From Chloroflexota bacterium (GTDB lineage Bacteria > Chloroflexota > UBA6077 > JACCZL01), in assembly GCA_030447245.1 (NCBI GenBank), contig JAUJPG010000022.1, positions 21,885-85,884 of the forward strand: a DNA stretch of 64,000 nucleotides, written 5' to 3'. The notes under the pieces were generated by a model. It was not told the DNA's origin. It ran no database searches and worked only from the letters and a program-made list of their open reading frames with translations. A program made the translations under genes and the position numbers. Below are positions 4,034-60,756 of this stretch, in pieces. Position 1 is the first letter of the stretch; the number at the start of each line of letters is the position of its first letter.

Positions 4034-4464
4034 ATGCCGGCTGACGAGCGCGATTGGTTGGCGAATCGAGCGACGAAGCTGTCCTTGACGGGTGTCTTCC
4101 TCGCCCTCATGGCGGCGTTCTCCGCGCGGCTTAGCGGCCGCCAGGAGACTCTGGAGATCCGACCTTTCGATCTGTTGCTGCTCGGGCTGTCGACCTACGG
4201 ACCCGGTCGCCTCGTGGCCTTCGAGCGGGTGACAGCGCCGCGGGGAGCCCTTCACCGAGACCAAACCAGACGATTCTGGTGCCGGGCGAGGTCGTCGTCG
4301 CTCGCGGGAGCGGCACGCGGCGGGTGCTCGGCGAGCTTGTGTCCTGTCCGGTCTGCGTCGGGAGCTGGGTCGCCGCCGGCCTGGTGTACGGGCTGCACCT
4401 CGCCCCGGGCCCCACCCGGGTGTACCTGGCGGTCCTGGGCACGGCGGGGCGGCCGAGCTGCTGA
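4034..4464 (+). pseudogene. DUF1360-family membrane protein, two closely spaced frameshifts
   Basis: N-part MPADERDWLANRATKLSLTGVFLALMAAFSARLSG...FERVTAPR (frame 2), then EPFTETKPDDSGAG (frame 0), then EVVVARGSGTRRVLGELVSCPVCVGSWVAAGL (frame 1). Joined, these match the DUF1360 consensus ...TSPLRAPFT...GELLTCPFCxxxWVA. Confidence 0.5.
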
Positions 4465-4737
4465 ACTGCTCGGCCGAGGCGCTGGGCTGGCTGGGGCGGG
4501 CCGCGCGCAAGGACGCCGGCACGTAAGCGGGGCGCGGGCGTGGACGTCGCGCTGCCGCGGGTAACGCGACAGGTCATTGTCGCCGTGGCGCCGAGGAGAC
4601 GCGGTAGCAGCCTCGGCTGTCGTCCCAGGTCATGTGGTTCTGGGTGCGCGGGACGCGGCGCCAGAGCTCGTCTCCGTCCCGGATTGTCGGGTCATCGACG
4701 TGCGGTCGGTCGGCCATGCAACGGGCAGCGGCCGCCG

Positions 4738-4923
4738 CTACGCGCGCGCCGTCAGCTCGCGAAGCACCTCACGGAGCGGTCCGGGCCCCTCGGTCAGCGT
4801 CAGCTCGCGCTCGGTCCCGCCGCGCAGATCCTCGTACCAGACCCGCGGCGGCCCTTCGGGTGGGACGACGACCTCAATGTCCATCCCGCGCAGGTGCCAC
4901 TCCAGCTGGACGTCGCCCCGTGA
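4738..4923 (-). CDS. small hypothetical protein (MSRGDVQLEWHLRGMDIEVVVPPEGPPRVWYEDLRGGTERELTLTEGPGPLREVLRELTARA)
   Basis: Protein-like composition, sits immediately downstream of the DUF433 gene on the same strand; no family recognised. Confidence 0.25.
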   Translation of the reverse strand, partial: SRGDVQLEWHLRGMDIEVVVPPEGPPRVWYEDLRGGTERELTLTEGPGPLREVLRELTARA

Positions 4924-5122
4924 CATTGGCACCACCGCGGGAGCCGGGCGTGTCGGTCTGCATGGCCGTCGCCAGCAGCGTGACTGCTCTGCCGGCGGCC
5001 CGCGGCTGATTGGCTTAGCCGAGTACGAATTCCACCCGGCAGCCAGCCGCAGCAAGCCGAGCAAGCTGCTCACCACCGGTCCAAGCCAGCGGGGAAGTGT
5101 GCCCTTCATGACCCACCCATAC

Positions 5123-5371: not shown

Positions 5372-5452
5372 CGTGATACCTCTGACGGGCATTATCTCAC
5401 GGGTCTGGCACTGGGATGGCGATCAGCCCGTCAGGACGGGGTGGAGGGGGAG

Positions 5453-6076: not shown

Positions 6077-6095
6077 GCAATGGCGCGGCAGCCGG

Positions 6096-8186: not shown

Positions 8187-8234
8187 GGCGACCCTGAGGA
8201 CGCTCAACGACTGCTCGATGGGGCGGCTCAGCAG

Positions 8235-8450
8235 ATGATGGACGCCGTCCACCGCTGCGAGAGCACCGTCAGCCGCATGCTGGACGACGGCATCTTGGCC
8301 CTGTTCGGCGCCCCAATCGCCCATGAGGACCACGCCCTCCGAGCCTGCTACGCCGCCGCATGTCGTTCGGGCGCCAGCGCCGAGCAGGGCGACCTGGAGT
8401 GCCGCCTGGCGCCGCTGCTTGGCGAGCAGCCGCGGACGAGTGGGCGATAG
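8235..8450 (+). pseudogene. adenylate/guanylate cyclase catalytic-domain fragment
   Basis: DGILALFGAPIAHEDHALRACYAAA is the class III cyclase core motif; only about 70 aa remain. Confidence 0.45.
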
Positions 8451-10282
8451 CGCGGGGCCGACCGACCGGCACATACTGGAGCTGGTGGCTGGAGAGGAGC
8501 GGCGAGGTGGAAGGAACCGCTAGGCGACATGCCGAGCGCTGCCTCGCGCTGGCGGAGGCTGCCGCGCCGAAGCTTCGAGGGCCCGAGCAGGCAGTCTGGC
8601 TGGCTCGGCTCGAGCAGGAGCACGACGAGCTGCAGACGGCGCTGGCCTGGAGCCTGGACCAGGCGAACGGCGCGGCAACTGTCGAGATTGGGCTGCGTCT
8701 GGCCGGAGCATTGCCATGGTTCTGGTTCGTCCACAGCCACCTTGCCCTGGGGCGACGCTGGCTCGAGCAGGCGCTCGAGAGGTCCAGCGCGACAGCGCCC
8801 TCCGGCCGAATGAAGGCAGTCCTCGGGCTCGGCCGGCTGACGCTCGAGCTGGGCGACCTTGGATCGGCGGAGGCTCGCTTCGAAGAAGGCATGACCCTGG
8901 CCCGCGAGCTGGGTGACCGACGACGGATGGCCGCCGCAGTCGACGGCCTGGGACTGGTGGCCCACGCCCGGGCCGACCACAAGCGGGCCCTGAGACTGCT
9001 GCGGGAGAGCCTGACGCTCTCCCGAGGCCTCGGCGACGAGCGCGGCGTCGCCGACGCGATCGGCAATCTAGGGCTCGTGGCGCGAGATCAGGACCAGACC
9101 GAACACATGGTCGCGCTGTACGAGGCGAATCTGGCACGCTACCGCGGTCTGGGGGACGCGCGCGGAGTTGCGTGGTCGCTCCATTGTCTGGGATTCGCGG
9201 CGCGGCAGCGATACGACGACGAGCGGTCGACAGCGCTGTTCGACGAGAGCATGGCGATATTCGAGGCGCTCGGCGATCGGCGCAGCGTCGCCTGGACGCT
9301 CCACAATCTGGCGCTCATCGCGCAGGCGCGGGCCGACTATGGACGGGCCGTCCCGCTCCACGAGGACAACCTGGCCCGCTTCCGAGCCTTCGGGGACACC
9401 CGGGGCGTTGCCGGAACGCTGCTGCACCTGGGGATCGTCGCCCGCCAGCAGGACGACTACGGACGGGCGATAGCGTTCTTCGAGCAGGCGCTGAGCCTGT
9501 TCCGACAGATCGACGACCGGCCGGGCATCGCCTGGTCGCTCCAGAACCTCGGCATCACGGCGCGCTACCAGGGCCGCCACGACCGGGCGGCGAGCCTGTA
9601 CGACGAGAGCCTTGCCCGGTTCCGAGCCCTGAAAGATCGCCGGAGCATCGCCTGGTCGCTCCGCGATCAGGGGATCCTGGTGCGCTACCGAGGAGACTAC
9701 GCGCAAGCCACACCGCTCTACGAAGAAAGTCTGGCCCTGTTTCGCGAGATCGACGAGCGGCGCGGGACGGCCTCGTCACTCCGCAACCTGGGGACCGTGG
9801 CGCGCGAGCAGGGCGACCACGAGCGAGCAGCTGCGCTGTACGAGGAGAGCCTGGCTCTGTTCCGCGAGATCGGCAACACCCGCGGAATCGCCTGGTCCCT
9901 CCGCAGCCTGGGGACCGCCGCGCAGGCGCGCGGCGACCATGGGCGGGCGGCAGCGCTGTACAGGGAGAGTCTGATCCTGTTCCGCGAGTTGGGCGACAAG
10001 AGGAGCATTGCCTGGTGCTTCCACAATCTGGGGACCGTGGTGCGCGAGCAGGGCGATGCCCGGCGGTCCGCCCACCTGCTCGGGGCGGCCGAGGCCCTGC
10101 GCCACGCCATCGGCGCCCCCTTGCCGCCCGGCGGACCGGGCCTCTTACGAACAGGGCCTGGCCGCCAGTCGCATCCCGCTCGACGGGGAGGCCCTCGCGG
10201 CGAGCTACGCAGTGGGACGGACGATCAGCCTGGAGCAGGCGATCGCCTACGCGCTGGACGAGCGGAAGTCGGTCTGAAGTGA
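8360..10282 (+). pseudogene. TPR-repeat domain of a large cyclase/NB-ARC/TPR regulator; NB-ARC domain missing, 3' frameshift near 10130
   Basis: More than 12 TPR-like repeats (...LGD.RGVAWSLHNLG...). The real C-terminus (...GAPLPPADRASYEQGLAASRIPLDGEALAASYAVGRTISLEQAIAYALDERKSV*) is in another frame (10008..10277) after one extra G at about 10130. The upstream cyclase fragment joins directly to the TPR region without the expected P-loop ATPase. Confidence 0.55.
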
Positions 10283-10416: not shown

Positions 10417-11052
10417 ATGCAGGCGGATGAGTTGAAGGGGCGCGGTGTGCTGGCGCTATCCAACGCCGAGAAGATCGGGCAGGTGGAGGACGTGCTGTTC
10501 GACGCGCAGTTCCGCCAGGTGCTGGGGTTCCGTGTGAAGCGGGGCGGCCTGTTCGGCAAGGCGCAGGCGCTCCTGCGCGACAGCGTGACCTCCATCGGTA
10601 CCGCCGCCTTGACGGTGCAGAGCCCGGATGCGGTCAACGACGAGGAGCGCTTCGCCGATCTGGCCCACGTGTCCACGTTGAGCCAGGTGGAGCGGACCCA
10701 GGTGGTCACCGAGAGCGGCGAGGTGCTGGGGACGATCGCGCACCTGGAGATCGACGACGACGCGCGCAAGGTCACGGCGTATGTGCTGTCGTCCTCGTTC
10801 AGGGACCGGGTGCTGGGCCATGACACCGAGTCGGTCAAGGCTGACGAGGTGCTCCGCCTGGGCGAGGGCGGGGTCATGGTGGTGCCGCACGCGGTCGCGG
10901 TGCGGCTCAAGCCGAGCGCGGATAGGCGCCGCGTCCGGGCACCCGCGGGTCCGGGACGGCGCCGCGATGGGCCTGACCCGGTGGCCGAGGACGCAGGGCT
11001 CGTCGACGTGGACGCTCGCGGAGAGCTCCCCGGACCGGGGCGCGGGTGGTGA
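10417..11052 (+). CDS. PRC-barrel domain protein (two PRC barrels)
   Basis: Two repeats of a PRC-barrel-like pattern (LKGRGVLALSNAEKIGQVEDVLFD... and VVTESGEVLGTIAHLEIDDDARKVTAYVL); the C-terminal tail is uncertain. Confidence 0.6.
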   Translation: MQADELKGRGVLALSNAEKIGQVEDVLFDAQFRQVLGFRVKRGGLFGKAQALLRDSVTSIGTAALTVQSPDAVNDEERFADLAHVSTLSQVERTQVVTESGEVLGTIAHLEIDDDARKVTAYVLSSSFRDRVLGHDTESVKADEVLRLGEGGVMVVPHAVAVRLKPSADRRRVRAPAGPGRRRDGPDPVAEDAGLVDVDARGELPGPGRGW

Positions 11053-11055
11053 TGA

Positions 11056-11221
11056 GAGATCGAGCTGGCGGTCGTCATCGGGCAGGAGGCCAGGGAGTCA
11101 CCCGCGAGCGGGCGGTGGCGCCCGTGGCCGGGTACACGATCTTCCACGACGTGAGCGCGCGGGATCTCGAGTTCGCGCCTGGCGGCGGGGTCATCGTGGG
11201 CAAGAACTTCGAGCAATTCTG
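11056..11221 (+). pseudogene. internal fragment of a fumarylacetoacetate-hydrolase (FAH) family gene, frameshifted
   Basis: EIELAVVIGQEAR then, after a frame switch, VTRERAVAPVAGYTIFHDVSARDLEFAPGGGVIVGKNFE; this is about 80% similar to residues of the intact FAH gene at 24296..25192 and abuts IS630 copy 1. Confidence 0.5.
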
Positions 11222-11275: not shown

Positions 11276-12720
<1,445 letters not shown>

Positions 12721-12892: not shown

Positions 12893-14067
12893 GCTACCGC
12901 CCATTGCCGCTGCCCAGGTCCTGACGCTCGTCGCGCTCCTACTCCTCGGCGACCGCCCGCGCGCCATCGACGCGCGAGCACCGGCCGAGCGTGACCCGGC
13001 CGAGCGCGGGCTCGCCGGTCCCGGATGACCCCGAATACCTTTCCTGGGCACAGCCCGGCCCCTTTCGGGCGCCGTTCCTGACCGACTTTCCCGTCCAGAG
13101 CTTCGCCGCCGATCAGCGCATCGTCGCCACGTACTTCTTCTACTGGTACGACGCGGCGACCTATCGGGCCAGCCAGGCCACCCGCGGCTTCGACCCGTAC
13201 CCGTTCCACCCGCCGAACCTCGCCACGATCAGCTTCCGCGACACCGATTGGTACGAGCATGAGTTCCGCGACATGCTCGCGGCCGGGTTGACGTGGTGCT
13301 GCCGGACTACTGGGGCGAGCCCGGGCCAGTACCATCGGCGGGTGGCCCCCGCCCCCGAGCTGAACTACTTTGCCACCGAGGGCATCCCTCCGATGGTCGA
13401 GGCGCTCGAACGGCTCGCCGACGCCGGTACGCCGCTCAAGATCGGCCTGTTCCTCGATACGACGATCCTGAACGACGAGGATCTGACGACCGAGCGCGGC
13501 AAGCAGATCTTTTACGCCTCGATCCGCGACTACTATTCGCGGATCCCTCCGCGCCACTGGGCGGCCATTGGCGGCGGCCGATCGTCTGGCTGTACGACGC
13601 GCAGCGGGTCTACCGCTTCGACCAGTCGACGTTCGACGCGGTGACCGCCTGGTTTCCGCGGGACTTCGGTGGCCTGGCACCGTTCATCATCCGCGAGGCG
13701 CAATGGGCGCGCCAAGAACGTCGACCACGACGAGCTGATCCACGCTGATGGCCTCTACGCCTGGGGCGCGGCACCCTTCGGGTTCGCCGAGGACCCGCGC
13801 GTCACCATCGCCCAGGTTGGCCCGGGGTTCTCGAGCGTCCAATTCGGCCGGCCGAACGGCATCTTCACAGACCGGCAGGATGGCCGCTACTACGAGGATC
13901 AGCTGCGCAAGGCGCTGGCGAGCGGCCGCCAGATCATGGCCGTCGAGACCTGGAACGAGCTGGGCGAGGCCAGCGGCATCCTCGAAACGGTCGAGTACGG
14001 CCGCCAGTACATCGACCTGACCCGGCGCTACGCCGAGCGCTTCAAGGCTGGCCTTGGGCCTCCGTGA
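12893..14067 (+). pseudogene. secreted glycoside-hydrolase-like protein (GH99-like/DUF5010-like, tentative) with at least three frameshifts
   Basis: Signal peptide MLPPIAAAQVLTLVALLLLG (frame 2), then ...YFFYWYDAATYRASQ...DWYEHEFRDMLAAGL (frame 1), ...VVLPDYWGEPG... (frame 0), ...FIIREAQWA...ETWNELGEASGILETVEYGRQYIDLTRRYAERFKAG (frame 1). The family call is tentative. Confidence 0.45.
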
Positions 14068-20922: not shown

Positions 20923-22130
20923 TCAGGCGCCGCCCGGCCCCTGGCGCGCCGCCTTGGCGAGTACCGGCGCGGCCTCGCGTGGCTCGCCTGGCGTGGCGAT
21001 TCGGTGGACGATCCGCTTCGCCCGGAGGGCCGCTTCGGCAGCCGCGAAGTAGTCGCGCACGTCCCCCTGGGTGGCGATCCAGCGAACGTACTGGCCAATG
21101 CCCTCGGCCAGCTCGACCCGCGGCTCGTAGCCGGCCGTCCGAGCCAGGCTAATATCCGAGGTCAGGTGGCGCATCTCGCCGGGCCGGAACTCCCCGCGCG
21201 CGAGCGGCTCGATCGGCGTCCCGAGCGCCGCGCCTACGAGCTGGCCGATCTCGCGCACGGTGGTCGCCCGGCCGCTCCCGACGTTGACCGGCTGGCCGTC
21301 GAGCACGTCGGTCGTGGCAGCCAGCAGGTTCGCCCGGGCGACGTCCTCGACGAAGCAGAGGTCGCGGGTCTGCGCGCCATCCTCGTAGAGGATCGGCGGC
21401 AAGCCGTTCAGCAGCCGCGTCGCGAAAATCGCGATCACGCCAGTGTACGGGTTGAAGATCGACTGGCGGGGGCCGTAGGTGCAAGAGTAGCGGAGCGCGA
21501 CGGTCGGGATACCGGTCTGGCGGCCCCAGGAGAGCGTCAGCCGCTCCTGGTCAACCTTCGTGAGCGCGTAGACCGTCTCGCCGCCGAGCGGAGCCTGCTC
21601 GGGCGTCGGCACCGACGTGGTGACCGCGTCGCAGCGCGGGCAGTGGACGGCGTAATCGCCGCGCTGGAGCTGGGCTAGTGGCCGCGCCGCCGGGAAGACC
21701 AGCCCGTGCGTCGGACAAGTTCCCGCACCCTCCTGGTAGACGGCCTGCGACGACGCCACGATGACCTTGCGGACCGGCAGGTTCTCGTCGCGGATGATCT
21801 CGAGGAGCTGGGCCGTCCCGAAGCTGTTGACGTGGACGTACTTGGCCATCTCCGGCATGTAGCCGCCGTAGGCCGCCTGGTGGAAGACCACGTCGATGTC
21901 GTCAAGGGCATCGCGCACGGCAGCCCCGTCTCGGATATCGGCCGTGCGAAACTCGGCGGCCTCGGGGATCCAGGCGGCCGCCCGAGCCCGTGGGTCTGTG
22001 GCTCCAGGTTGTCGAGAATCCGGACCGACCATCCGTCGCGGTTGATGAGGTCGGCAAGGTGCGAGGCGATCAGGTCGGCGCAGCCTGTGACGAGCGCGCG
22101 GCGATCGTGGCGAGGGGTGGTCGTGATCAT
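20923..22130 (-). CDS. NAD-dependent epimerase/dehydratase (SDR) with an apparent single frameshift near 21960
   Basis: N-terminus MITTTPRHDRRALVTGCADLIASHLADLINRDGWSVRILDNLEPQTHG (frame A) continues as ...AAAWIPEAAEFRTADIRDGAAVRDALDDIDVVFHQAAYGG...YALTKVDQERL... (frame B); either a real mutation or a sequencing indel. Confidence 0.6.
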
Positions 22131-22329: not shown

Positions 22330-23139
22330 TCACGATGTGATATCAGCGTACGACGTGGCTCGGTAGGTCCTTCGGGCAGGGACGGTCGACGCCCCGGTCG
22401 GCTCGGCCTGGCCGTTCGGGACGGGTCGGCCGAGCCGCTCGAGCGCGACGCGCGTAACGGGCAGGTCGTCGCGCCCGGCGACGAGCGCTGCCAACCGGTC
22501 GAGATCAGCGACTTCGTCTACGTCGAACGTTGGTGCGACGAACGCGATCGAAAGCCCGAGCCCTTCGGCGTGGGCGACGATCTCGGCCACGACGGTGCGG
22601 GTGCTCATCGCGACGCCATCGAGCACCCGCCAGGGTCCCCGCATGCCGACGAGATAGTAGCCCCCGTCCTCAACCAGGCCGAGCACCAGGTCGTGGCGTT
22701 CGAGCAGGGCGAACGCCTCGGCCACGATCTCCAACGTCAGGTGGGGAGTGTCCGACGCGACCAGGATCGTGCGCGTCTCGCCACGCGCGGCGGCTCCAAG
22801 GAAGAGTGCCTGCTGGCGCTCGCCCCAACTGCCCTCGCCCTGGATCAGCACCGGGCCGGCCGGCGCGAGCGAGCTGAGCAAGTACCCGGCCGACCGCTCA
22901 TCGTGTTGCCCGTTCGGCCGCTCTGATGGGCGGATCAGTGGGCCGATGTCGTCCCAGGCGTCCGCCGGCGTGATGTACCACCCGACGGCAAACGGCGCGG
23001 AAGCAAAGCGCGCCGCCAGGTCCCGCAGAAAGGCGATGTACAACTCGACGGCCCGCTCGTGGCCGATCGCGCGACCGAGGCGGGTCTTGGCGAAACCGGC
23101 CCGGGGCGCGCGGGCCGCGACGTAGAGGACCGCGCTCAT
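22330..23139 (-). CDS. DUF2064 / CofC-like nucleotidyltransferase-fold protein
   Basis: MSAVLYVAARAPRAGFAKTRLGRAIGHERAVELYIAFLRDL...LVGMRG matches DUF2064 (TIGR04282-like) blocks; its ATG overlaps the upstream GT2 stop (ATGA at 23136-23139). Confidence 0.7.
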   Translation of the reverse strand: MSAVLYVAARAPRAGFAKTRLGRAIGHERAVELYIAFLRDLAARFASAPFAVGWYITPADAWDDIGPLIRPSERPNGQHDERSAGYLLSSLAPAGPVLIQGEGSWGERQQALFLGAAARGETRTILVASDTPHLTLEIVAEAFALLERHDLVLGLVEDGGYYLVGMRGPWRVLDGVAMSTRTVVAEIVAHAEGLGLSIAFVAPTFDVDEVADLDRLAALVAGRDDLPVTRVALERLGRPVPNGQAEPTGASTVPARRTYRATSYADITS

Positions 23140-23897
23140 CGCGGGCCGCCCGGCGCGCGGGGCGCGGCGCTGGCGGCTGGGGACCAGTGCCAGTAGCGGA
23201 ACGTCGTTGCCAGGATGCTCCAGCCGGCTCGGACGCTCCCGCTGACCGTTCCTGCGACCTTCGAGATGCCGATCCGCGCGTGGTAGGTCACCGGAACCTC
23301 CTGGTAGCGGAGGCCGGCTCGCGCCGTCTTGACCATCATCTCGACCGACCAGCCGTAGGTCATCTCGCGCATGTTCAACGCGAGCAGGTCCGCGCGGCGG
23401 ATTGCTCGAAACGGGCCGAGGTCGGTGACCGCGACGCCGTAGAGGGCGCGCATGATCGTGGCGGCGAGCCGGTTGCCGAACACCTGATGCGGGCTCATCG
23501 AGCCGGGATCGCGCGCCCCGAGCGCACGCGAGCCAACCACCAGATCGGCCCGGCCAGCGAGCAGCGGCGCGAGGACGCGCGGCAGATCGTCCGGGTCGTC
23601 GGCGGCATCGCCGTCGAGCAGGACGATCACCTCGGCGTCGCTGGCAGCAAGCACGCCGGCCCGACAGGCGTAGCCGTACCCGCGTCGTGGCTCGACGACG
23701 ACGGTCGCGCCGGCCTCGCGCGCGATGGCCGCGGTGTCGTCGCTCGACCCGTTGTCGACGACGACGATGCTCGCGAGGGGAACGGCGGTCTGGCGACGAA
23801 GCCCGCGCACGACCTGACCGATCGACGGCGCCTCGTTGAGCGCCGGAATGACCGCCGCAATGCATGGCCCGCCCGCCTGCTCCCTGGCCGACACCAT
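23136..23897 (-). CDS. glycosyltransferase family 2 (partner of DUF2064)
   Basis: CIAAVIPALNEAPSIGQVVRGLRRQ...SIVVVDNGSSDDTAAIA...VLLDGDAADDP has the GT-A fold motifs (DxD-like DGD). Confidence 0.7.
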   Translation of the reverse strand: MVSAREQAGGPCIAAVIPALNEAPSIGQVVRGLRRQTAVPLASIVVVDNGSSDDTAAIAREAGATVVVEPRRGYGYACRAGVLAASDAEVIVLLDGDAADDPDDLPRVLAPLLAGRADLVVGSRALGARDPGSMSPHQVFGNRLAATIMRALYGVAVTDLGPFRAIRRADLLALNMREMTYGWSVEMMVKTARAGLRYQEVPVTYHARIGISKVAGTVSGSVRAGWSILATTFRYWHWSPAASAAPRAPGGPR

Positions 23898-24161
23898 CGC
23901 CTCGGGGCCTCTGGCACGCTCGTCAATCCTCAAGTCACCTCCAGCGCCCGTTCACCGCGGTGCCGCGATCGGGGACTGGCAAACCGCGTCATTGGTCGTG
24001 CCCTGGCCTCGCTCTGCCCGAACCCGCTCTGATGGTAGCAGTCAGTTCTTGCGAAATCCTTACTGACACCGTTGCAATCTCAAGAGTCCGGCTGATGGCC
24101 ACTTCACGTAGCAGTCCTTTCGTCGTCGACCCATCGCCAGCCTCTTCGAAGACGGTCTATC

Positions 24162-24205: not shown

Positions 24206-24295
24206 CCATCACGGCAAGTGACCCGCAAGCTGATAGGCATGGTCTCGGCAGCACGGCCCAGGCAGATGACGGGCGATGTCTCCCAGGAGGTTCCG

Positions 24296-25192
24296 ATGCG
24301 CTTAGTGACCTTCCTCGCCTCCGACCAGCCTCGTCTCGGCGCATTGCTCGACGACTCCGTGCTCGACTTGAACCGCGCGGACGCCACGCTTCCGACCGAT
24401 GCTCTGGCGCTGCTCCAGGGCGGTCCATCTCTACTGGACCGGGCGCGGCGTGCCCTGGGGAGCGCGATCTCAAAGCGCAGCGCCGTGGTGCCGCTGGCCG
24501 AGGTGAAACTGCTCGCACCGATTCCGCGACCACCCAAGATCATCTGCATCGGCTTGAACTACGCCGACCACGCGGAGGAGGCGGGGCTGGCGATCCCCGC
24601 TCGGCCGAGCGTGTTCCTGAAGGCTCCTTCCACAGTGATTGGTCCGGGCGAGCCGATTGTCCGCCCGACGACCACCGAGCAGCTCGACTACGAGATCGAG
24701 CTCGCGGTCGTGATCGGACAGCAGGCGAAGGCGGTGGCACGCGAGCGCGCGATGGACTGCGTGGCCGGGTACACGATCCTGCATGACGTGAGCGCCCGTG
24801 ATCTCCAATTCGCGAAGGATGGCGGCATCATCCTGGGCAAGAACTTCGACACGGCATCTCCCATCGGACCGTACCTCGTGCTGACTGACGAGCTGCGCGA
24901 TCCGACCACTCTGGGCCTCAGAACCTGGGTCAACGGGCAGCTTCGCCAGGATGGGAACACGCGCAATCTCATCTTTGACATTCCGGGCATCATCAGCTTC
25001 CTGAGCCAGCAGCTCACGCTCGAGCCCGGCGACGTGATCGCAACCGGCACGCCCGCGGGTGTTGGTTTGGGGATTATGCCGCAATCGTGGCTGCAGCCCG
25101 GGGACAGCGTGCGGATGGAGATCGACGGGCTGGGGGTGCTGGAGAACCCGGTGGTCGGCAGCTCATCCGTAAGAGCCGCGAGCGCGGGGTAA
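24296..25192 (+). CDS. fumarylacetoacetate hydrolase (FAH) family protein
   Basis: KIICIGLNYADHAEEAG...YEIELAVVIGQQAK...GYTILHDVSARDLQF...GKNFDTASPIGP...GDVIATGTP matches conserved FAH-family blocks; start taken at MRLVTF. Confidence 0.8.
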   Translation: MRLVTFLASDQPRLGALLDDSVLDLNRADATLPTDALALLQGGPSLLDRARRALGSAISKRSAVVPLAEVKLLAPIPRPPKIICIGLNYADHAEEAGLAIPARPSVFLKAPSTVIGPGEPIVRPTTTEQLDYEIELAVVIGQQAKAVARERAMDCVAGYTILHDVSARDLQFAKDGGIILGKNFDTASPIGPYLVLTDELRDPTTLGLRTWVNGQLRQDGNTRNLIFDIPGIISFLSQQLTLEPGDVIATGTPAGVGLGIMPQSWLQPGDSVRMEIDGLGVLENPVVGSSSVRAASAG

Positions 25193-26887: not shown

Positions 26888-27021
26888 TGCTGGTGTCCTC
26901 CTGTAGAACGGGGCACTGGGTGATGCTGCCACACTCGGGCGGCACGCGGCGTCCAGGGCTCCGGGGGCGGCGCGGCGATCGACCGGGAGAATGTGAAGGC
27001 GCCACCCGCGCCCTGTAGTTA

Positions 27022-28085: not shown

Positions 28086-28124
28086 ACTACAGCGCCCTTG
28101 ACACAGAACGCCCTGGATGGGTAC

Positions 28125-28620
28125 GGAGGACGACGTGCACCATTTCTCTGTCTTGCGCGCCGATCTGTCGGCGCTCGATTCTGTCGACCGAGCTGGGCGG
28201 CTGGGGGCGGCGGTTGCGCTGGTCGCGAGCGTGCTTCCGCGGCGACCTGCCCCCACGATCTGGCTGCGTCGATCGATGCCCACCCGGGCGGAAGGCGGCG
28301 ATCATTCAGGGCTACAACGGCGGCACCCACGGGGGAGCAGCCAATACGGGTGATCTTGTCCTTGCCGATGGCGGCACGAGCGGCGGCACGCAGGTGGTTT
28401 CGCCAATCGAAGGCTCGGGCCTGGGCATGCCGGGGTGGGCAACGGATGCCTGGCCATCGCCTTCCGCGACGGCTACAGCCTCATGCTCTGCCACGTGGTT
28501 CTGTCGCGTGCGTATCGCGCGCGGATCGCCCGCGGAGTCGCTCGGGACGGTTGGGCCGCCTGGGACCGTAGGCAACAACGGCGCAGTGGAACTGCGTTCC
28601 GTTCAGCGCGCCCGACGGGC
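28125..28620 (+). repeat. partial diverged tandem duplicate (copy B) of the IS remnant
   Basis: Shares blocks with 27070-27930 in the same order (TGTCTTGCGCGCCGATCTGTCG; GGTTGCGCTGGTCGCGAGCG; CCTCATGCTCTGCCACGT; CGGGACGGTTGGGCCGCCTGGGACCGT). Confidence 0.4.
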
Positions 28621-30009: not shown

Positions 30010-30255
30010 CTCGCGTCGTCACTTACCTGCCGCCGCGGATCGGGCAGCGGGACGTGGAGAACCTCGTACTCGGCGGACAAGAGCGCGGGGCCACACCCCT
30101 CAGCACCAATCCGAGCGTAGAATCCGCACCTCGGGGCTAGTATGATTGACCAGCTCCGTTGGGTGGAGGTGCCGAGCGGCCCCAGGTGTTTGCTGGTTCA
30201 ACTCTCCGACGAGATCCCGGAGCTCCCCGTCAACGGAAGCGAGGCACTGGATTCG

Positions 30256-38239: not shown

Positions 38240-38294
38240 GAAACGGTGGCTGAACATGGCGTTCCTCTCTCGGGCGGGTGCCGCTAGCGCCCGG

Positions 38295-39788
38295 CTAGCG
38301 GCTGATGCAGTCCAGCTCGACGGTCCTGGCGTTGTTCGTTTCGCTGGCTTCGATCACCGTGTTGTCGGGATCAACGATCACTTGCAGGCTGCCCTCGCCC
38401 TGCGAGATCCCCACCTCCTGGATCTCCACCTGCATCTCGGAACTCGACGCCAGGCCCCCGACGGTCGTCCGGCCGCGCTGCTGGTTGCCCACCTTCGCCT
38501 CGACGGCGAACGCGCCCGTTGACGCGTCGCCGGTGTTCTGAATCGTCACCGCGACCAGGTTCCTCCCGCGTGCCTCGCATCTCCCGCCGTCGTTACTGGA
38601 CGTGACCTCGACTGGACCCACCTGCAGGTCGGGATCCGGCAGCTTGATCAGGCCCGGCTGCGGGACCGACGGTGACACGGGGCCGGGCGGCCGCACGCTA
38701 GGGAGTCCGAGCGTCGGTCCGGTGGGGCCTGGGTCGGCGAGCGTGTTGCCGTCCAGTCCGCCGACCGGGCCGGCGTCCGACCCGACCCGCGCGGCAACGT
38801 AGGGCTGGCCGAAACGGTTGTTGGTCTCGTTGTTCTCCGGCACGATGCGCCGCTCGTCCACGGTCACCGACAACTGGTGCTGACCGGATGTGGGCAGGTC
38901 CGTGCCGGTGCAGAGCACGCCGAAGTCCCCTGAAGGGAGGCCACCCGCCGAGACGGTCCCGTTGCGCAGGACGTCGGGGCCGGCACGTAGCGTCATCTCG
39001 AACGGGCCGGGGTTCTTCACCCCGCGGTTGAGCACGCTCATGCACACGACGTCCTCGGTGCTGCCCGGCAGCTCGACGATCTCGATCTTCGTCGGCTCGA
39101 GGTCCGGCAGCAGGGCATGACGGACCTCGTACTCGGCGGTGAAGTGCGCGCGATGGCAACCGGTAGGACCCGACCTAACGCAGAAGCCTAATACACCGTC
39201 ACCCCCACCCCTCCAGCCACGTTCGGTCCAGGTACCGATGCCCCAGCCCATATCCTGGTCGACGAGCCCGATGAGGTCCCCCATCTCGTCGTCGGCACTC
39301 ACTTCGTCCCGTTCGACCCCCACGATTTTCCACCCGTAGGTTTGGCCCGCGTATACCGGGAAGCCCATTCACGGGCGGATACAGAGGAACGGCATACAGT
39401 CGCCGGCCGCGAAAGCTCCGATTCAGAGGCACCACCTTGTCATCACTCGCGCGGAAGGTGATATCCGCGCTCTGGGCACGCAGCGTCTGCCCCCGACTCT
39501 CAAACGGCGAACCCGCATAATCACAGAAGTCCGTGGTGTCGGGGGCGCAGCTCCAGAAGCTGACGGTGAAGGTGAAATCGCCTTGGCCCCAATCCTGATC
39601 GTCGTGGATGATGATCTTGTTGATCACAAACTCGAGCCGCGCGACAGGATCGTGACCCGGCCTCGTGCTCCGCGCGCGCGGGACCCCGGCGCCCCGAGCG
39701 CCGTGAGCACCAGCGCGATCACGAGACCAAGCGCGGGCATGGCGCGGCGGAGGGCGTCAATGGTGGTGGTGACATGGGGGTTGACCAT
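38295..39788 (-). pseudogene. paralog of the CARDB protein with two frameshifts
   Basis: Signal peptide MVNPHVTTTIDALRRAMPALGLVIALVLTALGAPG (frame a); KIIIHDDQDWGQGDFTFTVSF...SDDKVVPL (frame b); GFPVYAGQTYGWKIVG...NTVIEASETNNARTVELDC (frame c). The shifts lie in a (CG)5 run near 39640 and at an extra G near 39400. Confidence 0.55.
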
Positions 39789-40008
39789 GGCTCGATCTCC
39801 CTGCAACCGATCCTCTGGGCCCAGTGTATGGCCTGCGCGGCGCCGCCGAGGTGCGCGCCGACACCGCGCGCTGTCAGTTGGCCGACACTTCGGCCGACCG
39901 GGCGGCGATGGCTGACCTCTGGCGGTCTGGAGTTGGTTCTCCAATGCCGCCGTCTGCGCGGCGCCGGGCCAGCGACCCCGGAAGGCGCCGGGCGCAGAGC
40001 CGACGCCG

Positions 40009-42760
40009 CTACGCGGGAGCGGGACCACGCTGCGCGTCCGACCACGATGAGCCTCCTCCGAGCGAGCGACCGCGGCCTGGCCGGCGCCGCATCCACTGGG
40101 CCCATCGTATGCCCCGGCGGTCATCTGCACAGGTACAGATCTGTACCAATGGGGTGCACCATTCCCGGCCGGGCTGGGCTGGCGGCCGGCGTGGCCGACA
40201 TCTTGACGGCACCCACGGCCTCCCGGCCGCGGGTCGCGAGCCGTTACCGGGCAGGGGCGGGGTGAGGCCGTGCTCGACGGCCCAGGCGGCGATCTGGGCG
40301 CGGGTGTTGAAGCCGAGCTTGGTCAGGACGCGGTGGACGTAGTTGGCCGCGGTCCCCTCGGTGACGACCAGCGCCTCGGCGAGCTGGCGGTTGTTCAGCC
40401 CGCCCGCGATCAACTCGGCCACCTGCCGCTCTCGGGTCGTGAGCAGCAGGGTTGGCGATGCGTTGGATTGATCGGGCTCGGGCGGGGGCAGCTCGTCGGA
40501 GGCGTCAGGGCGTACGCCATCGCCTCGGCGGCGGTCATGGCCGCCCCCTCGGCCCAGGCCCGGGCGCCAGCGTCGCGCCCCAGATTCGCCCTGGCTGTCG
40601 CCAGCCCGGGATCGAGCCGGGCCTGCCAGGCCTGATCCGGCGCCGCGCCGATAGCCTCCCGCAGCGCGGTCGCGGCGGCGGCCAGGCGCAGGGCCCGCTC
40701 GGGCTGCGCACGGGCGGCAGCCAGGACGGCGACGCCGGCCAGGCTGAAGGCGATCCGTCGACGGTCGCCCACCTCGGCAGCGGTCAGGAGGCACTCATGG
40801 TGGAGCGCCTCGGCGGCGGCGTGGTCCTGCTGCAGCAGGACCACGTCCCCCAGATTGCCGAGTGCCATCGCGAGGCTCTGGCGGTCTCCGAGCTCGCGGA
40901 AGATCCCGAGACTCTCTTCGTACCATCGGCGGGCCGCGGCAGGTCACCCTGGAGGAGGACGGCAGCCAGTCCCAGGTTGTGCAGCGCCAGGGCCACGCCT
41001 CGCATGTTGCCGCGCTCGCGCTGGAGGGCAAGGCTCTCCTCGTACCGCGAGCGCGCGGTTGCGTAGTCATTCTGGAGGTGCGCAACGAACCCCAGGCTCT
41101 GGAGCACGTCGGCCATGCCGGGCCGGTCGTCGAGGCCCTGAACGCGTCGGCTCTGCTGGCCGAGCGAGCGAGCCGCCGCGTAGTCGCCCTCGAGATAGGC
41201 CAGCCACGCGAGGTGGTGCAGAGCGCGTGCGACGCCCGGTTGAATCGTTCAGCTCGCGGGCGGCCGCCAGGGCCTCCTCGAGGAGGGCTCGCGCGGTGCG
41301 GTAGTCGCGGCTTGACGGACCAGGATGCGGTTCCGGCGAGAGCCCTGGCCCTGGACCAGCGTGGGCGGTCCGCTCCGTCCATGCGCAAGCAGGTCGACGA
41401 GCCCTCTCGAGCCTCCCGCGCCTGGCCGCGCACCAACCAGAACTGCCAGAGCGCCCCGCCCAGCCTCAGCCCCCGCTCGGGCTCGCCGCGCTCGGCGGAC
41501 CACTCGAGGACCGCGTGGAGATTAGCTCGCTCGGGCTCCAGCCCGGTCCAGCCACGCCGCCTGCTCGGGTCCCGGACAGCGCTGGCTCGGCCCGCTCGGC
41601 CAGGGCGACGAAATACTCGGCGTGGTGGTGCCGGACCTCCTCCAGCTCGCCGCGGGTCGAAGCTGCTCCAGCCCGAACTCACGGAGCGTCTCCAACAGGC
41701 GCAGCCGAGGCTCGCCGTCCGCCCGCTCCTCGCAACGCAGCAAGCTCTTCTCGACCAGCGAGTTGACCGTCTCCCAGGCGGCCTCACCCACCGCCTCGGC
41801 CGCCTCGAGCGTGCAGCCGCCGACGAACACCGCCAGCCGGGAACAGGGCCTGCTCCTCGGGGTCGAGCAGGTCGTAGCTCCAGGCGATCGCCGCGAGCAG
41901 CGTCTGCTGCCGCGGCGGCAGCGCCCCCGCGGCTAGCAGCCGCAACGGCGAGATCACCCGCCCGTCGCGCGCGCGGCGTGCCCCATCGTCGGTCCCGACC
42001 AGCCGCCGCAGCAGCGCCGCGGCGGAACAGCTTGACCCGCGCGCGGCGTAGCTCGATCGCCAGCGGCAAGCCGTCCAGGCGGATGCAGATCTCGGCCACC
42101 GCCGCGGCCTCCGCGTCGCCGAGGGCGGCCTCGGGCGCGACCGCCAGGGCCCGCTCGCGGAACAGCTGGACCGCCCGGCGCCGCGCCGAGCGCCTCGGGG
42201 TCCGTCGGCCATCGAGGTCGGGCGGCGCCAGCACGGGCAGCTCCAACGGCAGGACCGCGAGCTCCCGTTCCCAGCGCAGGTGCAGCGGGGCGCGACTGGT
42301 CACCACGACCTTCAGCTTCGGACAGGCCGCCAGCAGCCGGCCGACGACCTCGGCAGCGTCGAGCACCTGCTCGAAGTTGTCGAGCAGCAGCAGCAGCGGC
42401 CCGGTCGCGCAGGAAGTCTGTCCAGCACCTCGGCGGCGCCGCCGGGACGTCCTGCAGGCCGAGCGCGCGCGCGATCGCGGTCGCGACCAGGCGCGCGTCG
42501 CCGATCGGCGCCAGGTCGACAAACCAGGCCCCAGCCTCGAACTCCTCGCACATCGGCCGCCAGCTCGACCGCCAGCGCGTCTTGCCGACCCCGGGCGGCC
42601 CGGTCAGGGTGAGCAGCCGCACGTCGGCGCGCAACAGCCGCTGGCGGGCCACGCCCAGCTCCCGCTCGCGCCCGATCAGCGACCTGGGCTGGGGCGGCAG
42701 GTTGTGGCGCCGCGGCGGACCGGCCGGCGGGCCGGCGTTGCCGAGTGGCCGCGCCCTGTC
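40009..42760 (-). pseudogene. large LAL-type regulator (P-loop NB-ARC ATPase + TPR + C-terminal LuxR HTH) broken by at least four frameshifts
   Basis: P-loop LIGRERELGVARQRLLRADVRLLTLTGPPGVGKTR, NB-ARC LLLLDNFEQVLDAAEVVGRLLAACPKLKVVVTSRAPL, ...LFPAGGV/FVGGCTLEAAEAV..., TPR repeats, ...AAEAMAYAL, and the HTH LLLTTRERQVAELIAGGLNNRQLAEALVVTEGTAANYVHRVLTKLGFNTRAQIAAW are distributed over ORFs 41954-43201, 42312-43121, 40795-42522, 41784-42212, 41522-41830, 40784-41116, 40410-40868 and 40009-40794. Confidence 0.55.
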
Positions 42761-43315
42761 TTGCGCCCGCGGGCGACCGGACGAGAGGACCGGGGTCGCG
42801 GCCGCGCGGGCCGGCCTGCCGCGGGCTTGATGAGGCCGGCGCGTGGATCGGGGCGCGCTCTCCTCGGACACGGTCGGCTCGCTCCCCCAGGCGCACGCGC
42901 GAGACGGACGACGACGGCCCGCCAGCCCGCGCCTGGGTTGCCGGTGCCCGGCCGGCCGCAACGCCTCCCGAATCGTACACCAATCGGCCCCTGCCGCCGG
43001 CCGCGCGACGAGGGCGAGCCTGTCCGCTCGCGATTGCTGCTCGCGCCGACCTCGGCGCGGCTCGACCAGGATGGCGGAGCTCGAGGGGGCCACCCACGTA
43101 TGAGCAGGCACGTTCGTGCACGCGTGATTACGTCTCGCCTCCTGGTCGCCAGCTCCGGAACAGGTCCGGCGATGCGCGAGTTGCGCAGCACCTTCGGACA
43201 CCCTGCTGTGCCGGGCCGGCCGCCCCTGCTACAGGCCCGGCATCCAGGGCCTGCCGCGCAGGCGGAGGATCAGGATCGACGGGGGCGGGGCTATAATGGC
43301 GGTGCGAGGTCCGAG

Positions 43316-43876
43316 ATGGCGGTCCAGCTCACGCGCTACCGATTCACGGCCGACGAGTACGAGGCGATGGGCCGCGCCGGGATCCTCGGCGAGGACGACC
43401 GGGTCGAGCTGATCGAAGGGGAGATCGTCGAGATGGCGCCGATCGGCCCCGGGCACGCGCGCTCGGTCAACGACTTCACTGAGCGCTTCGTGGTCCACTT
43501 CCGCGACGTCGCCATCGTCTCGCCGCAGAACTCGATTCGGCTCGGCCGGTACAGCGAGCCCCAGCCCGACCTGGTGCTGCTGCGTCGGCGGGCCGATCGG
43601 TACGGCAATGCCCTGCCGTCGGCGGAGGATGTGCTGCTGGTGGTCGAGGTGTCGGACACGACGGTCGCGGCCGATCGCGGTGTCAAGGTGCCGCTCTACG
43701 GGCGCGCTGGCATCCCGGAAACCTGGGTGGCCGACCTCCCGCACGACGTGCTGCACGTGTATCGGGAGCCGGTGGACGACGGGTACCGGGTCGTCCAGAC
43801 GCTCCGGCGTGGCGACCGCGTCGCGCCGCTGGCGTTCCCGGATCGCGAGCTGGAGGTCGCCGAGCTGCTGGGCTGA
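43316..43876 (+). CDS. Uma2-family (DUF820) putative endonuclease
   Basis: MAVQLTRYRFTADEYEAMGRAGILGEDDRVELIEGEIVEMAPIG...PQPDLVLL...VLLVVEVSDTT...DRGVKVPLYGRAGIPETWVADL matches the Uma2 family; it is the C-terminal 187 codons of a 1004-aa ORF that is otherwise antisense to the regulator pseudogene. Confidence 0.75.
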   Translation: MAVQLTRYRFTADEYEAMGRAGILGEDDRVELIEGEIVEMAPIGPGHARSVNDFTERFVVHFRDVAIVSPQNSIRLGRYSEPQPDLVLLRRRADRYGNALPSAEDVLLVVEVSDTTVAADRGVKVPLYGRAGIPETWVADLPHDVLHVYREPVDDGYRVVQTLRRGDRVAPLAFPDRELEVAELLG

Positions 43877-43929
43877 GCGCCGTCTGGACGTTCCACCTCG
43901 GGTGGAGCAGCGCTTCCTTCGGCCCGGGG

Positions 43930-44736
43930 CTAGACGAGCCCCTGCGCCCGGGCGCTCTCAGTCAGGAACGGGATGAGTGCCGCGTTGAACCGATCGGGCG
44001 CCTCCATGTTGGACAGGTGGCCGACGCCTTCGAGGGTCACCAAGCGGGCGCCCGGGACGCGCTCGGCAAGCAGGCGCGACTCGGACGGCGGAGTCGACAC
44101 GTCCTCAGCGCCCACGACGACGAGCGTCGGCACGCCGATGCTCTCGAGGGTTGAGGTCATGTCGTCGCGCGCAGCCAGTCCGGCCAGGGCCGCCGCGATC
44201 GACGTGGGCCGGTTCGCTCGGACCATCGCTCGGTAACGCTCCACCACGCCTGACCGCTCCACCACGGTGGACGGCGCCACCATCCTGGGCACCTGCATCT
44301 CGACAAACTGCTCGGTGCCGCCGGCGAGCACCAGCTGGGCCTGCTCCTGACGCACCTGCCGGACCTCCTCGGCGTCGGCCGGGGCCCTGGTATCAGCCAG
44401 CACGATCGCCCACACACGTTCCGGGTGTCGCGCAATCAGGTTCAGGATGACGTAGCCGCCCATGGAAAGCCCGACCAGCGCCGCTCGCTCGACGCCCAGA
44501 CGATCGATCAGCGCGACGAGGTCGGCGACGTAGTCGTCCATGGTGAACGGTCCGTCTGACGCCGGGCTGCTGCCGTGCCCCCGCAGGTCAGGCACGATGG
44601 TGCGGAATCGCTCGGCGAGCGGCTCGACCTGGTCGTCCCACATGGCGCGGGTGAGCGGGAACCCGTGGAGCAGGAGCACTGCTGGCCCGCTACCACGCTC
44701 GGTGTAGTCCAGGAGCCTCGGTGGAGTGTGGGTCAT
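43930..44736 (-). CDS. alpha/beta-fold hydrolase
   Basis: LLLHGFPLTRAMW...VGLSMGGYV...GHLSNMEAPDRFN has the nucleophile-elbow GxSxG and the catalytic His region. Confidence 0.8.
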   Translation of the reverse strand: MTHTPPRLLDYTERGSGPAVLLLHGFPLTRAMWDDQVEPLAERFRTIVPDLRGHGSSPASDGPFTMDDYVADLVALIDRLGVERAALVGLSMGGYVILNLIARHPERVWAIVLADTRAPADAEEVRQVRQEQAQLVLAGGTEQFVEMQVPRMVAPSTVVERSGVVERYRAMVRANRPTSIAAALAGLAARDDMTSTLESIGVPTLVVVGAEDVSTPPSESRLLAERVPGARLVTLEGVGHLSNMEAPDRFNAALIPFLTESARAQGLV

Positions 44737-55429: not shown

Positions 55430-55456
55430 GCTCGGCATTCCGCCGAACGATCCTGG

Positions 55457-57883: not shown

Positions 57884-59013
57884 GCCTCGGTCGGCGGGTG
57901 GCGCTGCTGGGCCTGGCCGGCGTGCTGCTGCTGCTGGCCACGCCGGCGCGCCGAGTGGCCTGGGAGGCGATCGACCTCGAGACGCGCCACCGGATGATTG
58001 CTATCGGCTCGCGGCTGGTCGCCCGCCGCGTCGAGACGGCCGACGAGGTTGTGGTGAGCCCGCAGGTGGACAATCCGATCGGCGTCAACGTCTTTCTGGA
58101 CCAGGAGACGTCCGAGGCCCGCCGGCGCAGCTTCGAGATGCTGCGGGCGGCAGGTGTGGGCTGGGTGCGACAGCAGTTCGCCTGGAAAGAGATCGAGCGG
58201 GACGGAAAGGGCGATTTCCTCGACCGCAAGTGGAACGTCAGCGCCTGGGACAGCTACGACGAGATCGTCAACCTCGCGCTGGCCCACGACATTCAGGTTA
58301 TCGCCCGCGTCGACACGTCGCCGGCCTGGGCCAGGCCGGGCAACGACTGGGAGCAGTCACCGCCCGCGCGCGATGAGGACCTGGGCGACTTCGTGTACGC
58401 CCTGGCCGAGCGCTACCGGGGACGGGTACGCGCCTACCAGATCTGGAACGAGCCGAACCTGGCGATCGAGTGGGGACGCCAGGCGCCGGACCCGGCGGGG
58501 TACGCACGCCTCCTCCGGGTAGCCCGCGACCGGATCAAGCAGGCCGACCCGGGCGCGATCGTGCTGAGCGCGTCGATGGCGCCGACGCTCGAGGAGAGCG
58601 AGGATGCTCTCAACGAGCTGCGCTACCTCCAGGAGATGTACGACGCGGGCGCGGGTGGGGCATTTGACGTGCTGGGCATCCAGGCGTACGGTCTGCGGAG
58701 CGGCCCGGACGATCGGCGACTGTCCAGCGGAGACGTCAACGTCTCGCGGGCGCTGCTGGTGCGCGAGCTCATGGTCCGCAACGGCGATGCCGCCAAGCCC
58801 ATCTGGGCGACGGAGATCGGCTGGAACGCGCAGCCGTCGAGCTTTCCAGGACCGGTCCCATACGGGGCCGTGAGCGCGGAGCTCCAGGCCCGCTACACCA
58901 TCCGCGCGTTCGAGCGGGCGCGCGTGGAGTGGCCGTGGATGGGCGTGATGGCGGTCTGGTTCCTCAAGCTGAACGAACCATGGCAGCCGGCCCAGCCCTG
59001 GCACTCTTTTTAG
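57880..59013 (+). CDS. secreted GH-A clan glycoside hydrolase (GH5/GH113-like)
   Basis: Signal peptide VSLGRRVALLGLAGVLLLLATPA; catalytic acid/base motif YQIWNEPNL; nucleophile region IWATEIGW; the start overlaps the upstream stop (GTGA). Confidence 0.6.
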   Translation: MSLGRRVALLGLAGVLLLLATPARRVAWEAIDLETRHRMIAIGSRLVARRVETADEVVVSPQVDNPIGVNVFLDQETSEARRRSFEMLRAAGVGWVRQQFAWKEIERDGKGDFLDRKWNVSAWDSYDEIVNLALAHDIQVIARVDTSPAWARPGNDWEQSPPARDEDLGDFVYALAERYRGRVRAYQIWNEPNLAIEWGRQAPDPAGYARLLRVARDRIKQADPGAIVLSASMAPTLEESEDALNELRYLQEMYDAGAGGAFDVLGIQAYGLRSGPDDRRLSSGDVNVSRALLVRELMVRNGDAAKPIWATEIGWNAQPSSFPGPVPYGAVSAELQARYTIRAFERARVEWPWMGVMAVWFLKLNEPWQPAQPWHSF

Positions 59014-59098
59014 CATCCTGGAGCCCGACTTCACGCCGCGCCCGATCTACCACGCCCTGCGCGCGTACGCAGCCGAGCGCGGACTGCGGGGACACGGA

Positions 59099-60756
59099 AT
59101 GAGGCAGGCGCGCCTGCCTCATTCCGTGTCCCCTGGCATCCTGGTCCTGGCGGCGGCGCTCCGCGGGTATCGTCTGGACGCCCAGAGCCTCTGGTACGAC
59201 GAGGGCGTGAGCGCCTTCATGACCACGCGCGGGCCCGCCGAGATCGCGCTGGCGGCCGCCGCGGACATCCACCCGCCTCTGTACTACTGGCTGCTCGCCG
59301 CCTGGGCAGTCCCCTTTGGGGCCGGGCGAGGTGGCGCTACGGGGGCTGTCAGCCGTCCTGGGGACGATGACGGTCTGGGTCGTCTGGCGGCCGGGGCGCC
59401 GCCTCTCCGACGACGTGGTGGGCCTGGCTGCCGCGGCTCTGCTGGCGGTCTCGCCGCTGGCGGTCCAGTACGGCCAGGAGGTGCGGATGTACGCGCTGGC
59501 CGGCCTGCTGGCGGCGGCGGCGACCTGGGCGTACCTGGTGCTGCTGGAGAGCATCGCACTGGGGCGCTCGGAGGCCAGGACAATCCTGCTGTATGCGCTG
59601 CTGTCCGCGGCGCTAATCTACAGCCACTACTACGGGGTGCTCGTGCTGGCCGCCCACCAGCTCCACGCCGCAGGGAGGATCATCAGCGGCTGGAGGCGCG
59701 ACCTCATGGTCAGCGTGTCGCGGAGCGGCGCCGCGGTACCGGCGGTGGCGGGGTCGTCATCGGGCGGCAGCGTGAGCGGCTGCTGCCGTGGCTGCTGGCG
59801 AGCGGGCTCATCGCCGCGCTGTACCTGCCCTGGCTGCCGTATGCCCTGCGCCAGACGGGCGACTACCTTGGGCCTGGGGACACCCCAGCCGCCGTGGGCG
59901 CTGGTGCTGGACGCGGTAAACGTGCTGTCGCTCGGGATCGCCACGACACGGTTCGAGCTTCGGTGGCCCTGGTGCCATTCGTCATCCTGGCGCTTCTCGG
60001 GCTGGCCCGAAGGAGTGAACGGCCGCGGCCAGGTGCCAGGGATCGACGACGTCCGTCGGTGCATTGCTGGCGCTCTGGTTGGTGATCCCAATTGGTGGGA
60101 TCGTCGCCCTCTCGGCGACGCGGCCGCTCTACGAGCCGCGTTTTCTGATGCTGGTCCTGCCAGCCTGGACGATCCTCGTCGCGGCCGGCGGCGTTGGCGT
60201 GAGTCGTGCGGCGGTTCGCTGGGGCGCCCGGCGTGGGCTGGCACCGAGCGGGCGGAGCGTCCTCGCGGGGGTGGTCGGCGCCGGGTTGCTCGCGATGTTG
60301 CTGGTCCCGACCGCGCGCTCGCTGGCGGCGTACTACTTCGATCCAGCATACGCCCGCGATGATTATCGCGGTCTGGCCCGCCGGGTCGCCGAGCTGGAGC
60401 AGCCGTCCGACGCCGTCATCTTGACGGCTCCCGGTCAGGCCGAGATCTTTGGCTACTACTATCGTGGGAGCGCCGACCTCTTTCCGCTGCCGGCCCAGCG
60501 GCCGATCAACCCGGCCGATACCCTCGCCCGGCTTGAAGCCGTGGCGAACGGTCATCGGCGCGTCTGGTTCGTGCGCTGGGCGGCCAGCGAGGCCGATCCG
60601 GACGACTTGATCGGCGGCTGGCTTCACGACCACGGCCGCCCGACTCTCCTCGAGCGCTTTGGCCGCGTCGAGCTCCACCGATACGATTTGAGCGGGCAAG
60701 CGAAACAGGAGGATCGGTCGATCGCACGCTCCGAGGACGTGACCGATGGCCGCTGA
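59099..60756 (+). pseudogene. GT39/ArnT-PMT-like membrane glycosyltransferase with at least five frameshifts
   Basis: GILVLAAALRGYRLDAQSLWYDEGVSAFM...DIHPPLYYWLLAAW (frame 2); ...RGLSAVLGTMTVWVVWRPGRRL...YSHYYGVLVLAAHQL (frame 0); ...RLLPWLLASGLIAALYLPWLPYALRQ (frame 2); PWALVLDAVNVLSLGIA (frame 0); VALVPFVILALLGLA (frame 2); MLALWLVIPIGGIVAL...RVELHRYDL (frame 1). Confidence 0.55.

Follow-up and report, generated by a model that had tools for sequence, protein, structure and literature searches.

Two kinds of described system come closest to the stretch of DNA reported here. The first is gene decay of the Mycobacterium leprae type, together with dead relics of insertion sequences (IS), in which accessory and mobile genes are affected, their neighbours are intact, remnants and a nonsense codon accompany the lesions and indels fall at short runs. 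The second is the long-read or hybrid, partly polished metagenome assembly, with about 1% single-base indels in patches, perfect sequence elsewhere, repeats affected worst, normal corrected proteins and short-read contigs that match the clean parts only. All these features are shared by a 64,000-nucleotide stretch of a Chloroflexota assembly (GCA_030447245.1, contig JAUJPG010000022.1, positions 21,885 to 85,884; hereafter "the window"), in which transposase genes, regulators and accessory enzyme genes are interrupted by changes of reading frame. It differs from decay of the M. leprae type in that almost only 1-nt indels are present, the heavily affected genes have no large deletions, extra substitutions are not detectable and blocks of lesions end inside genes. 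It differs from the assemblies mentioned in that no long reads are documented, most sites lie outside homopolymers of at least 4 nt and insertions are as common as deletions. Based on the data given below we consider, with a probability of roughly 0.5, that the densely packed shifts represent consensus or assembly noise rather than real multi-hit pseudogenes, and that the isolated shifts are probably real.

Since the window has 70% G+C, long open frames are uninformative in it. Reading frames were therefore segmented with a codon-usage Viterbi model trained on the window's own long genes, and wherever homologues were obtainable our own frameshift-aware protein-to-DNA aligner was used, which permits frame shifts and penalises stops. 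In alignments to homologues, 13 loci were found to contain about 52–54 frame shifts, and the other coding sequence, about 45 kb, contains none. An earlier note on this DNA had named ten genes as broken by frameshifts; two checks, Pfam searches with stitched versus single-frame translations and the frameshift-aware alignment, demonstrated a change of frame in all ten. The note understated the extent of the damage, and shifts in a PRC-barrel gene and in a fragment of the FAH family were absent from its list. The absence of shifts from some 45 kb of coding sequence means that uniform scatter cannot give such a distribution; for the empty 16.7-kb stretch at 42.6–59.3 kb alone P is about 1e-6 at the window average of 0.83 shifts per kb. 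About 45 of the approximately 53 shifts are packed, at 6–12 per kb, into five or six short blocks:

4243–4272: block in the DUF1360 gene
11537–12582: block in IS630-like element 1
13289–13707: block in the DUF5010 gene
32161–33018: block in IS630-like element 2
39369–42572: block covering a regulator gene and the first 420 nt of a CARDB paralogue
59324–60063: block in the GT39 gene

About five shifts remain isolated (10127, 10907, 11096, 21985 and 33660). The density is alike in the blocks of six unrelated genes and everything else has 0 or 1 shift, so that the distribution is bimodal and does not represent a spread of pseudogene ages. Block edges fall inside genes: in the CARDB paralogue 4 lesions are crowded into 317 nt and the following 1.07 kb is clean, and in the GT39 gene 5 lesions within 740 nt precede 690 clean nucleotides. 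In these two genes and in the DUF5010 gene lesions are limited to 21–45% of the gene (p of about 0.02 in a range test combined over the three). Scatter over the whole gene, as expected of dead genes, was not seen in these three, and was seen in the regulator and in both IS elements.

The genes under the blocks, apart from the two IS elements, are the following:

4034–4465, plus strand: DUF1360 gene, two +1 shifts separated by about 30 nt
12900–14067, plus strand: DUF5010/GH99-like gene with two −1/+1 pairs (13289/13317 and 13574/13707)
38295–39790, minus strand: CARDB-domain paralogue with three +1 shifts (39686, 39661 and 39417), its remaining 1.07 kb clean
40264–42780, minus strand: full-length ATPase-TPR-LuxR ("LAL-like") regulator with 12–14 shifts (42572–40450)
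59099–60756, plus strand: GT39 (PMT_2) glycosyltransferase with five shifts (59324, 59671, 59867, 59965 and about 60014–60063)

The heaviest load was registered in the LAL-like regulator. Its AAA_16, TPR_12 and GerE domains are found by Pfam in three different frames; seven homologues of about 1000 aa align with it end to end and agree on 10–12 concordant shifts, and inspection by eye added one more compensated pair (about 42572/42540). There is no stop on the aligned path. A cyclase-domain remnant upstream of this gene, which would have placed a shift inside a contig of the Logan collection (L004), was looked for and none was found. The adjoining CARDB paralogue, which gives CARDB hits in Pfam, was compared with the intact paralogue P0122 encoded at 36800–38257, and here an in-frame TGA (39369–39371) is aligned to a glycine of the intact neighbour. 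In the DUF1360 gene one shift is due to a surplus G in GGGG (about 4242–4245) and the other to a surplus T at about 4272; a single frame covers positions 42–93 of the Pfam model with 43 bits, and the stitched translation covers 1–94 with 58 bits. A third shift near 4447, proposed by segmentation, is better read as the natural C-terminus. The DUF5010/GH99-like gene, listed as "GH-like" in the earlier note, was aligned with P0140 (46% identity), and positions 36–317 of Pfam DUF5010 are matched only when its translation is stitched.

Alignment of the GT39 gene with P0141 (63% identity) and P0142 shows no shift in its first 225 nt or its last 690 nt. A tandem duplication at 59.65–59.79 kb was considered and is not present. 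A perfect 46-nt palindrome at 59088–59133 (GGGGACACGGAATGAGGCAGGCG|CGCCTGCCTCATTCCGTGTCCCC) overlaps the ATG of this gene, and the encoded N-terminus is unlike that of the 63% identical homologue. Related GT39 fragments with out-of-frame tails are found on an ENA contig of Flye style, where all genes are fragmented; this is ordinary, uniform long-read noise in another data set of this lineage.

Two transposase genes complete the set of dense blocks:

11390–12700, plus strand: IS630-like element 1, an HTH part and a DDE part with 11 single-base shifts
32092–33093, plus strand: IS630-like element 2 with 10 shifts (32161–33018) and a stop-bearing insert near 32708–32714

They had been taken for two copies of one element, which is ruled out, as they share no DNA similarity and belong to different subfamilies. 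Shifts of element 1 (11537, 11685, 11771, 12017, 12051, 12230, 12291, 12340, 12353, 12457 and 12582) were called by alignment to IS630 relatives with two open reading frames (ORFs) from Deinococcus and Microvirga plasmids. Some of them are only 13 nt apart, and the four residues in between (GHKS) still match the homologue. The corrected DDE part is 63–64% identical to the relatives, as compared with 67% identity between these two. In both relatives (L007, 274–1466; L008, 200–1533) HTH and DDE ORFs are annotated with an offset of −1; programmed frameshifting may thus be native to this subfamily, and one of the frame changes in element 1 may have this origin. Element 1 resembles these transposases in its identity (50–64%) and in the order of its HTH and DDE parts, but has eleven additional shifts on both sides of the HTH/DDE junction; they cannot belong to a programmed event, and what was found is not a single conserved frame change. 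Shifts of element 2 were called against residues 32–362 of a 377-aa Skermanella IS630 transposase. To the left of this element, at 31743–31909, there is an imperfect inverted repeat of about 170 nt with 77% identity, adjoining the end (31733) of a Logan contig (L001).

All well-resolved shifts (at least 17) are changes by a single base: those of +1 type occur without a missing residue and those of −1 type with exactly one missing, insertions being as frequent as deletions. Within 3 nt of a G/C run of at least 3 nt are 19 of 30 shift sites, against a background of 31%; few sites are in runs of at least 4 nt and some have no run at all. Most sites lie outside long homopolymers. By length, homopolymers in the blocks show no more than a slight excess of 5-nt runs, which decides nothing on the platform. 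The corrected proteins are full-length, their motifs are kept and their identity to homologues equals that among the intact homologues themselves. Element 1 keeps 109 of the 131 positions conserved between its two homologues, for which the corresponding values are 109/128 and 109/125. For GT39 the conserved positions kept number 81/103 in the shifted part and 83/99 in the clean part, without a significant drop. Indels free of accompanying substitutions in genes that look intact after correction are a feature of the error type, and this is what was observed.

Independent data were available as Logan contigs of the Illumina run SRR24765285, three of which match 5.86 kb of clean window sequence with no indels and two synonymous differences:

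29440–31733: Logan contig SRR24765285_222038 (L001), 2294 of 2294 positions identical
42649–44492: Logan contig SRR24765285_209580, 1844 of 1844 identical, its end lying 77 nt before the first shift of the LAL-like regulator gene
60045–61763: Logan contig SRR24765285_45272, 1717 of 1719 identical and gap-free, its start lying inside the 60014–60057 interval, in which the last GT39 shift must lie

Two of these contigs terminate less than 80 nt from a shift block. Exact protein look-ups place the genes of the window on an NCBI contig of 85,913 bp and some of them also on Logan contigs. Of the candidate shift-spanning ORFs looked up in this way most were not on record; five shift-bearing ORFs are, all from NCBI only and none (0/5) in Logan, where three of five intact genes are present. 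Among those known from NCBI only are the ORF 3788–4564 of the DUF1360 gene and the fragments 12991–13644 and 13669–14067 of the DUF5010/GH99-like gene. The sole differences between the window and Logan, at 61648 and 61651, affect third codon positions 3 nt apart in a GT2 gene and are synonymous, which indicates strain-level variation between the window source and SRR24765285. This run is a soil metagenome sequenced on Illumina NovaSeq without PCR, and the sole paper citing it describes metagenome-assembled genomes (MAGs) obtained with MEGAHIT v1.1.3 only and deposited at NCBI. We infer, short of proof, that the window belongs to the same study. Search for close relatives gave at best 37% among GTDB representative genomes and 29% among JGI metagenomes, and no match among plasmids. 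Further homologue searches gave mostly members of the large regulator family, one homologue of 40% identity and, for a long chimeric query, no hit; as they also missed fragments that are on record, nothing follows from their negatives. Among named relatives the closest are Chloroflexota proteins from MAGs (GT39, 51% identity; BNR-like, 37%) and Roseiflexaceae, so that the organism may not be an actinomycete in spite of its 70% G+C and regulators of "LAL" type.

Outside of the dense blocks the window contains genes with a single shift and stretches that are evidently broken in other ways:

8211–10262, plus strand: 5'-truncated remnant of a cyclase/ATPase/TPR regulator with one +1 shift at 10124–10130
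10417–11052, plus strand: PRC-barrel gene lacking one nucleotide at 10907 (CC to C)
11056–11213, plus strand: internal FAH-family fragment of 53 codons with a 1-nt deletion at about 11096
20923–22130, minus strand: homologue of NAD-dependent epimerases/dehydratases with one shift at about 21975–21990
27000–29200, strand not assigned: frame-less stretch with a partial DDE integrase (rve) fragment and short direct repeats
33130–35551, minus strand: gene of a large protein with C-terminal pentapeptide repeats and one shift at about 33660

The regulator remnant consists of a short cyclase piece (8211–8428) in another frame and a TPR half (8489–10262) with TPR hits in Pfam, which aligns only to residues about 530–997 of homologues of about 1000 aa and needs a single shift. 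The FAH fragment is a true gene remnant, having 80% nucleotide identity to residues 159–211 of the intact paralogue at 24218–25192. The deletion in the PRC-barrel gene, as compared with the ENA contig L006 (94% DNA identity, one gap in the coding part), is 17 nt before the TAG of the relative and adds 42 residues, so that the window protein has 211 aa and its relatives 169 aa. A second PRC-barrel copy (P0132, 98 aa) on another NCBI contig, of 117,030 bp, is 95% identical, comprises the C-terminal 98 residues only and is disrupted elsewhere than the window copy. In the epimerase homologue PDB alignments cross the junction; YxxxK is kept, and the nucleotide-binding motif reads GCADLIA instead of GxxGxxG with two of three glycines replaced. 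The shift of the pentapeptide gene has a homopolymer-free context (GCTGCGATGCG), and the stitched protein gives pentapeptide hits in Pfam. For 27000–29200 the Viterbi segmentation found no stable frame, Pfam rve is matched in positions 20–74 of 102 and only weak plasmid hits were obtained; with no consistent frame, shifts are uncountable there. This stretch also contains a direct repeat of about 50 nt (27862–27916 and 28537–28584) and G6, G7 and G8 runs within 30 nt at 28957–28986. A candidate shift at 22.3–23.9 kb was rejected, being two overlapping genes: GT2 and DUF2064 (22330–23933) overlap at stop and start, and a 511-codon open frame across both could pass for a frameshifted fusion. Thus the earlier statements that the damage is limited to frameshifts and, taken strictly, that there are no premature stops were not borne out, since truncated remnants are present alongside the nonsense codon of the CARDB paralogue and the stop-bearing insert of element 2.

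Taken together, this would correspond to two superimposed layers. The first one is real: an accessory, IS-littered stretch in the genome of an uncultured, probably Chloroflexota-like bacterium of desert soil, containing the 5'-truncated regulator, the 53-codon FAH fragment, the rve fragment and probably some of the isolated frameshifts. The second layer would comprise the shifts of the dense blocks, introduced as single-base insertion and deletion noise upon reconstruction of the contig in poorly supported or repeated stretches; the genes beneath would then probably be intact. The alternatives left by the earlier note, pseudogenisation and clustered long-read errors, both remain live, but the long-read part has no support in the documentation of Illumina and MEGAHIT. 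Error as such gained from the analysis, because the events are single-base, have similar density in six unrelated genes, form short blocks ending inside genes and are accompanied by few stops, no measurable extra substitutions and no large deletions even in genes with 10–14 shifts. Shift-bearing ORFs are absent from Illumina-derived contigs, and the three Logan contigs match the window over 5.86 kb without an indel and break off at the edges of blocks. From this we infer an error of consensus or assembly as the cause. Several points weigh against it. Illumina data assembled with MEGAHIT rarely create 1% of single-base indels, no mechanism can be named, and the documented data favour real decay; the paper citing SRR24765285 mentions no long reads, and no indel-prone platform was found in the documentation. 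None of the three Logan contigs spans a certain shift site, and their stops at the blocks fit both explanations, since at k=31 IS elements and paralogous regulators count as repetitive. Tests for substitution load are low in power, and their upper bounds still permit about 1 indel per 5 substitutions. One block (CARDB) contains an in-frame TGA and another (element 2) a stop-bearing insert. The PRC-barrel gene, between shifted neighbours, has a clean body and a single shift confined to its last six codons, which is the pattern predicted under selection. Finally, the presence of real gene remnants (truncated TPR regulator, FAH and rve fragments) raises the prior for real decay.

If all shifts were real, the window would be a decaying accessory island, where slippage-type single-base indels accumulated under relaxed selection and useful neighbours stayed intact. 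The dead genes would be the IS630 elements, the redundant regulator, the CARDB paralogue, the accessory GT39, the GH-like gene, DUF1360 and others. This explanation is a serious one, which we place somewhat short of even odds. Provenance from Illumina and MEGAHIT agrees with it, as do the unambiguous relics in the same stretch, the nonsense codon of the CARDB paralogue, the degenerate GxxGxxG of the epimerase and the sparing of all but the last PRC-barrel codons. The affected genes could all plausibly be dispensed with, shifts are missing from about 45 kb of other genes, and enrichment of shift sites at short G/C runs is what slippage predicts. Even the behaviour of Logan contigs can be accommodated, because IS relics with an indel per about 100 nt would be unique at k=141 and not at k=31, which would give a long source contig and short Logan contigs. 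However, decay should not leave 10–14 indels per gene without large deletions, nor one or two stops at most where 3 to 6 are expected at ordinary ratios of indels to substitutions. It also sits badly with the lack of measurable extra substitutions, with resolved events of exactly 1 nt, with near-uniform density across unrelated genes, with blocks ending inside genes and with the failure of Illumina-derived Logan contigs to reproduce any of the five shift-bearing ORFs. Functionality of the shifted genes by recoding, through programmed ribosomal frameshifting or transcriptional slippage, might be suggested by the −1 offset of ORFs in relatives of element 1, where one change may be native, and by corrected proteins that look selectively maintained. 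Nevertheless, at least 10 shifts per gene in both directions and in unrelated contexts share no slippery motif, stops are met between shifts (for instance, at 13642–13644), and we know of no system that copes with so many shifts; recoding is thus improbable in the extreme. Hardly more credible is that the blocks are real and record patch-wise, indel-biased mutagenesis in a desert bacterium exposed to desiccation and UV. Kilobase tracts might be copied by an error-prone polymerase in break repair, or damaged environmental DNA might be imported by recombination; either route would produce clustered single-base indels, few substitutions and edges that disregard gene boundaries, but nothing in the window speaks for it directly.

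Both main explanations, noise in the dense blocks and decay, are well-known phenomena, and the choice between them is a question of data quality and not of new biology. It decides whether the GT39, the ATPase-TPR-LuxR regulator, the CARDB protein, the DUF5010/GH99-like enzyme, the epimerase and the two transposases are to be annotated as functional, and whether the numbers of pseudogenes obtained from such metagenome-assembled genomes are reliable. If the dense blocks are noise, they serve as a flag of assembly quality. Should the indels be real, their occurrence almost without substitutions would indicate an unusual mode of mutation dominated by indels.

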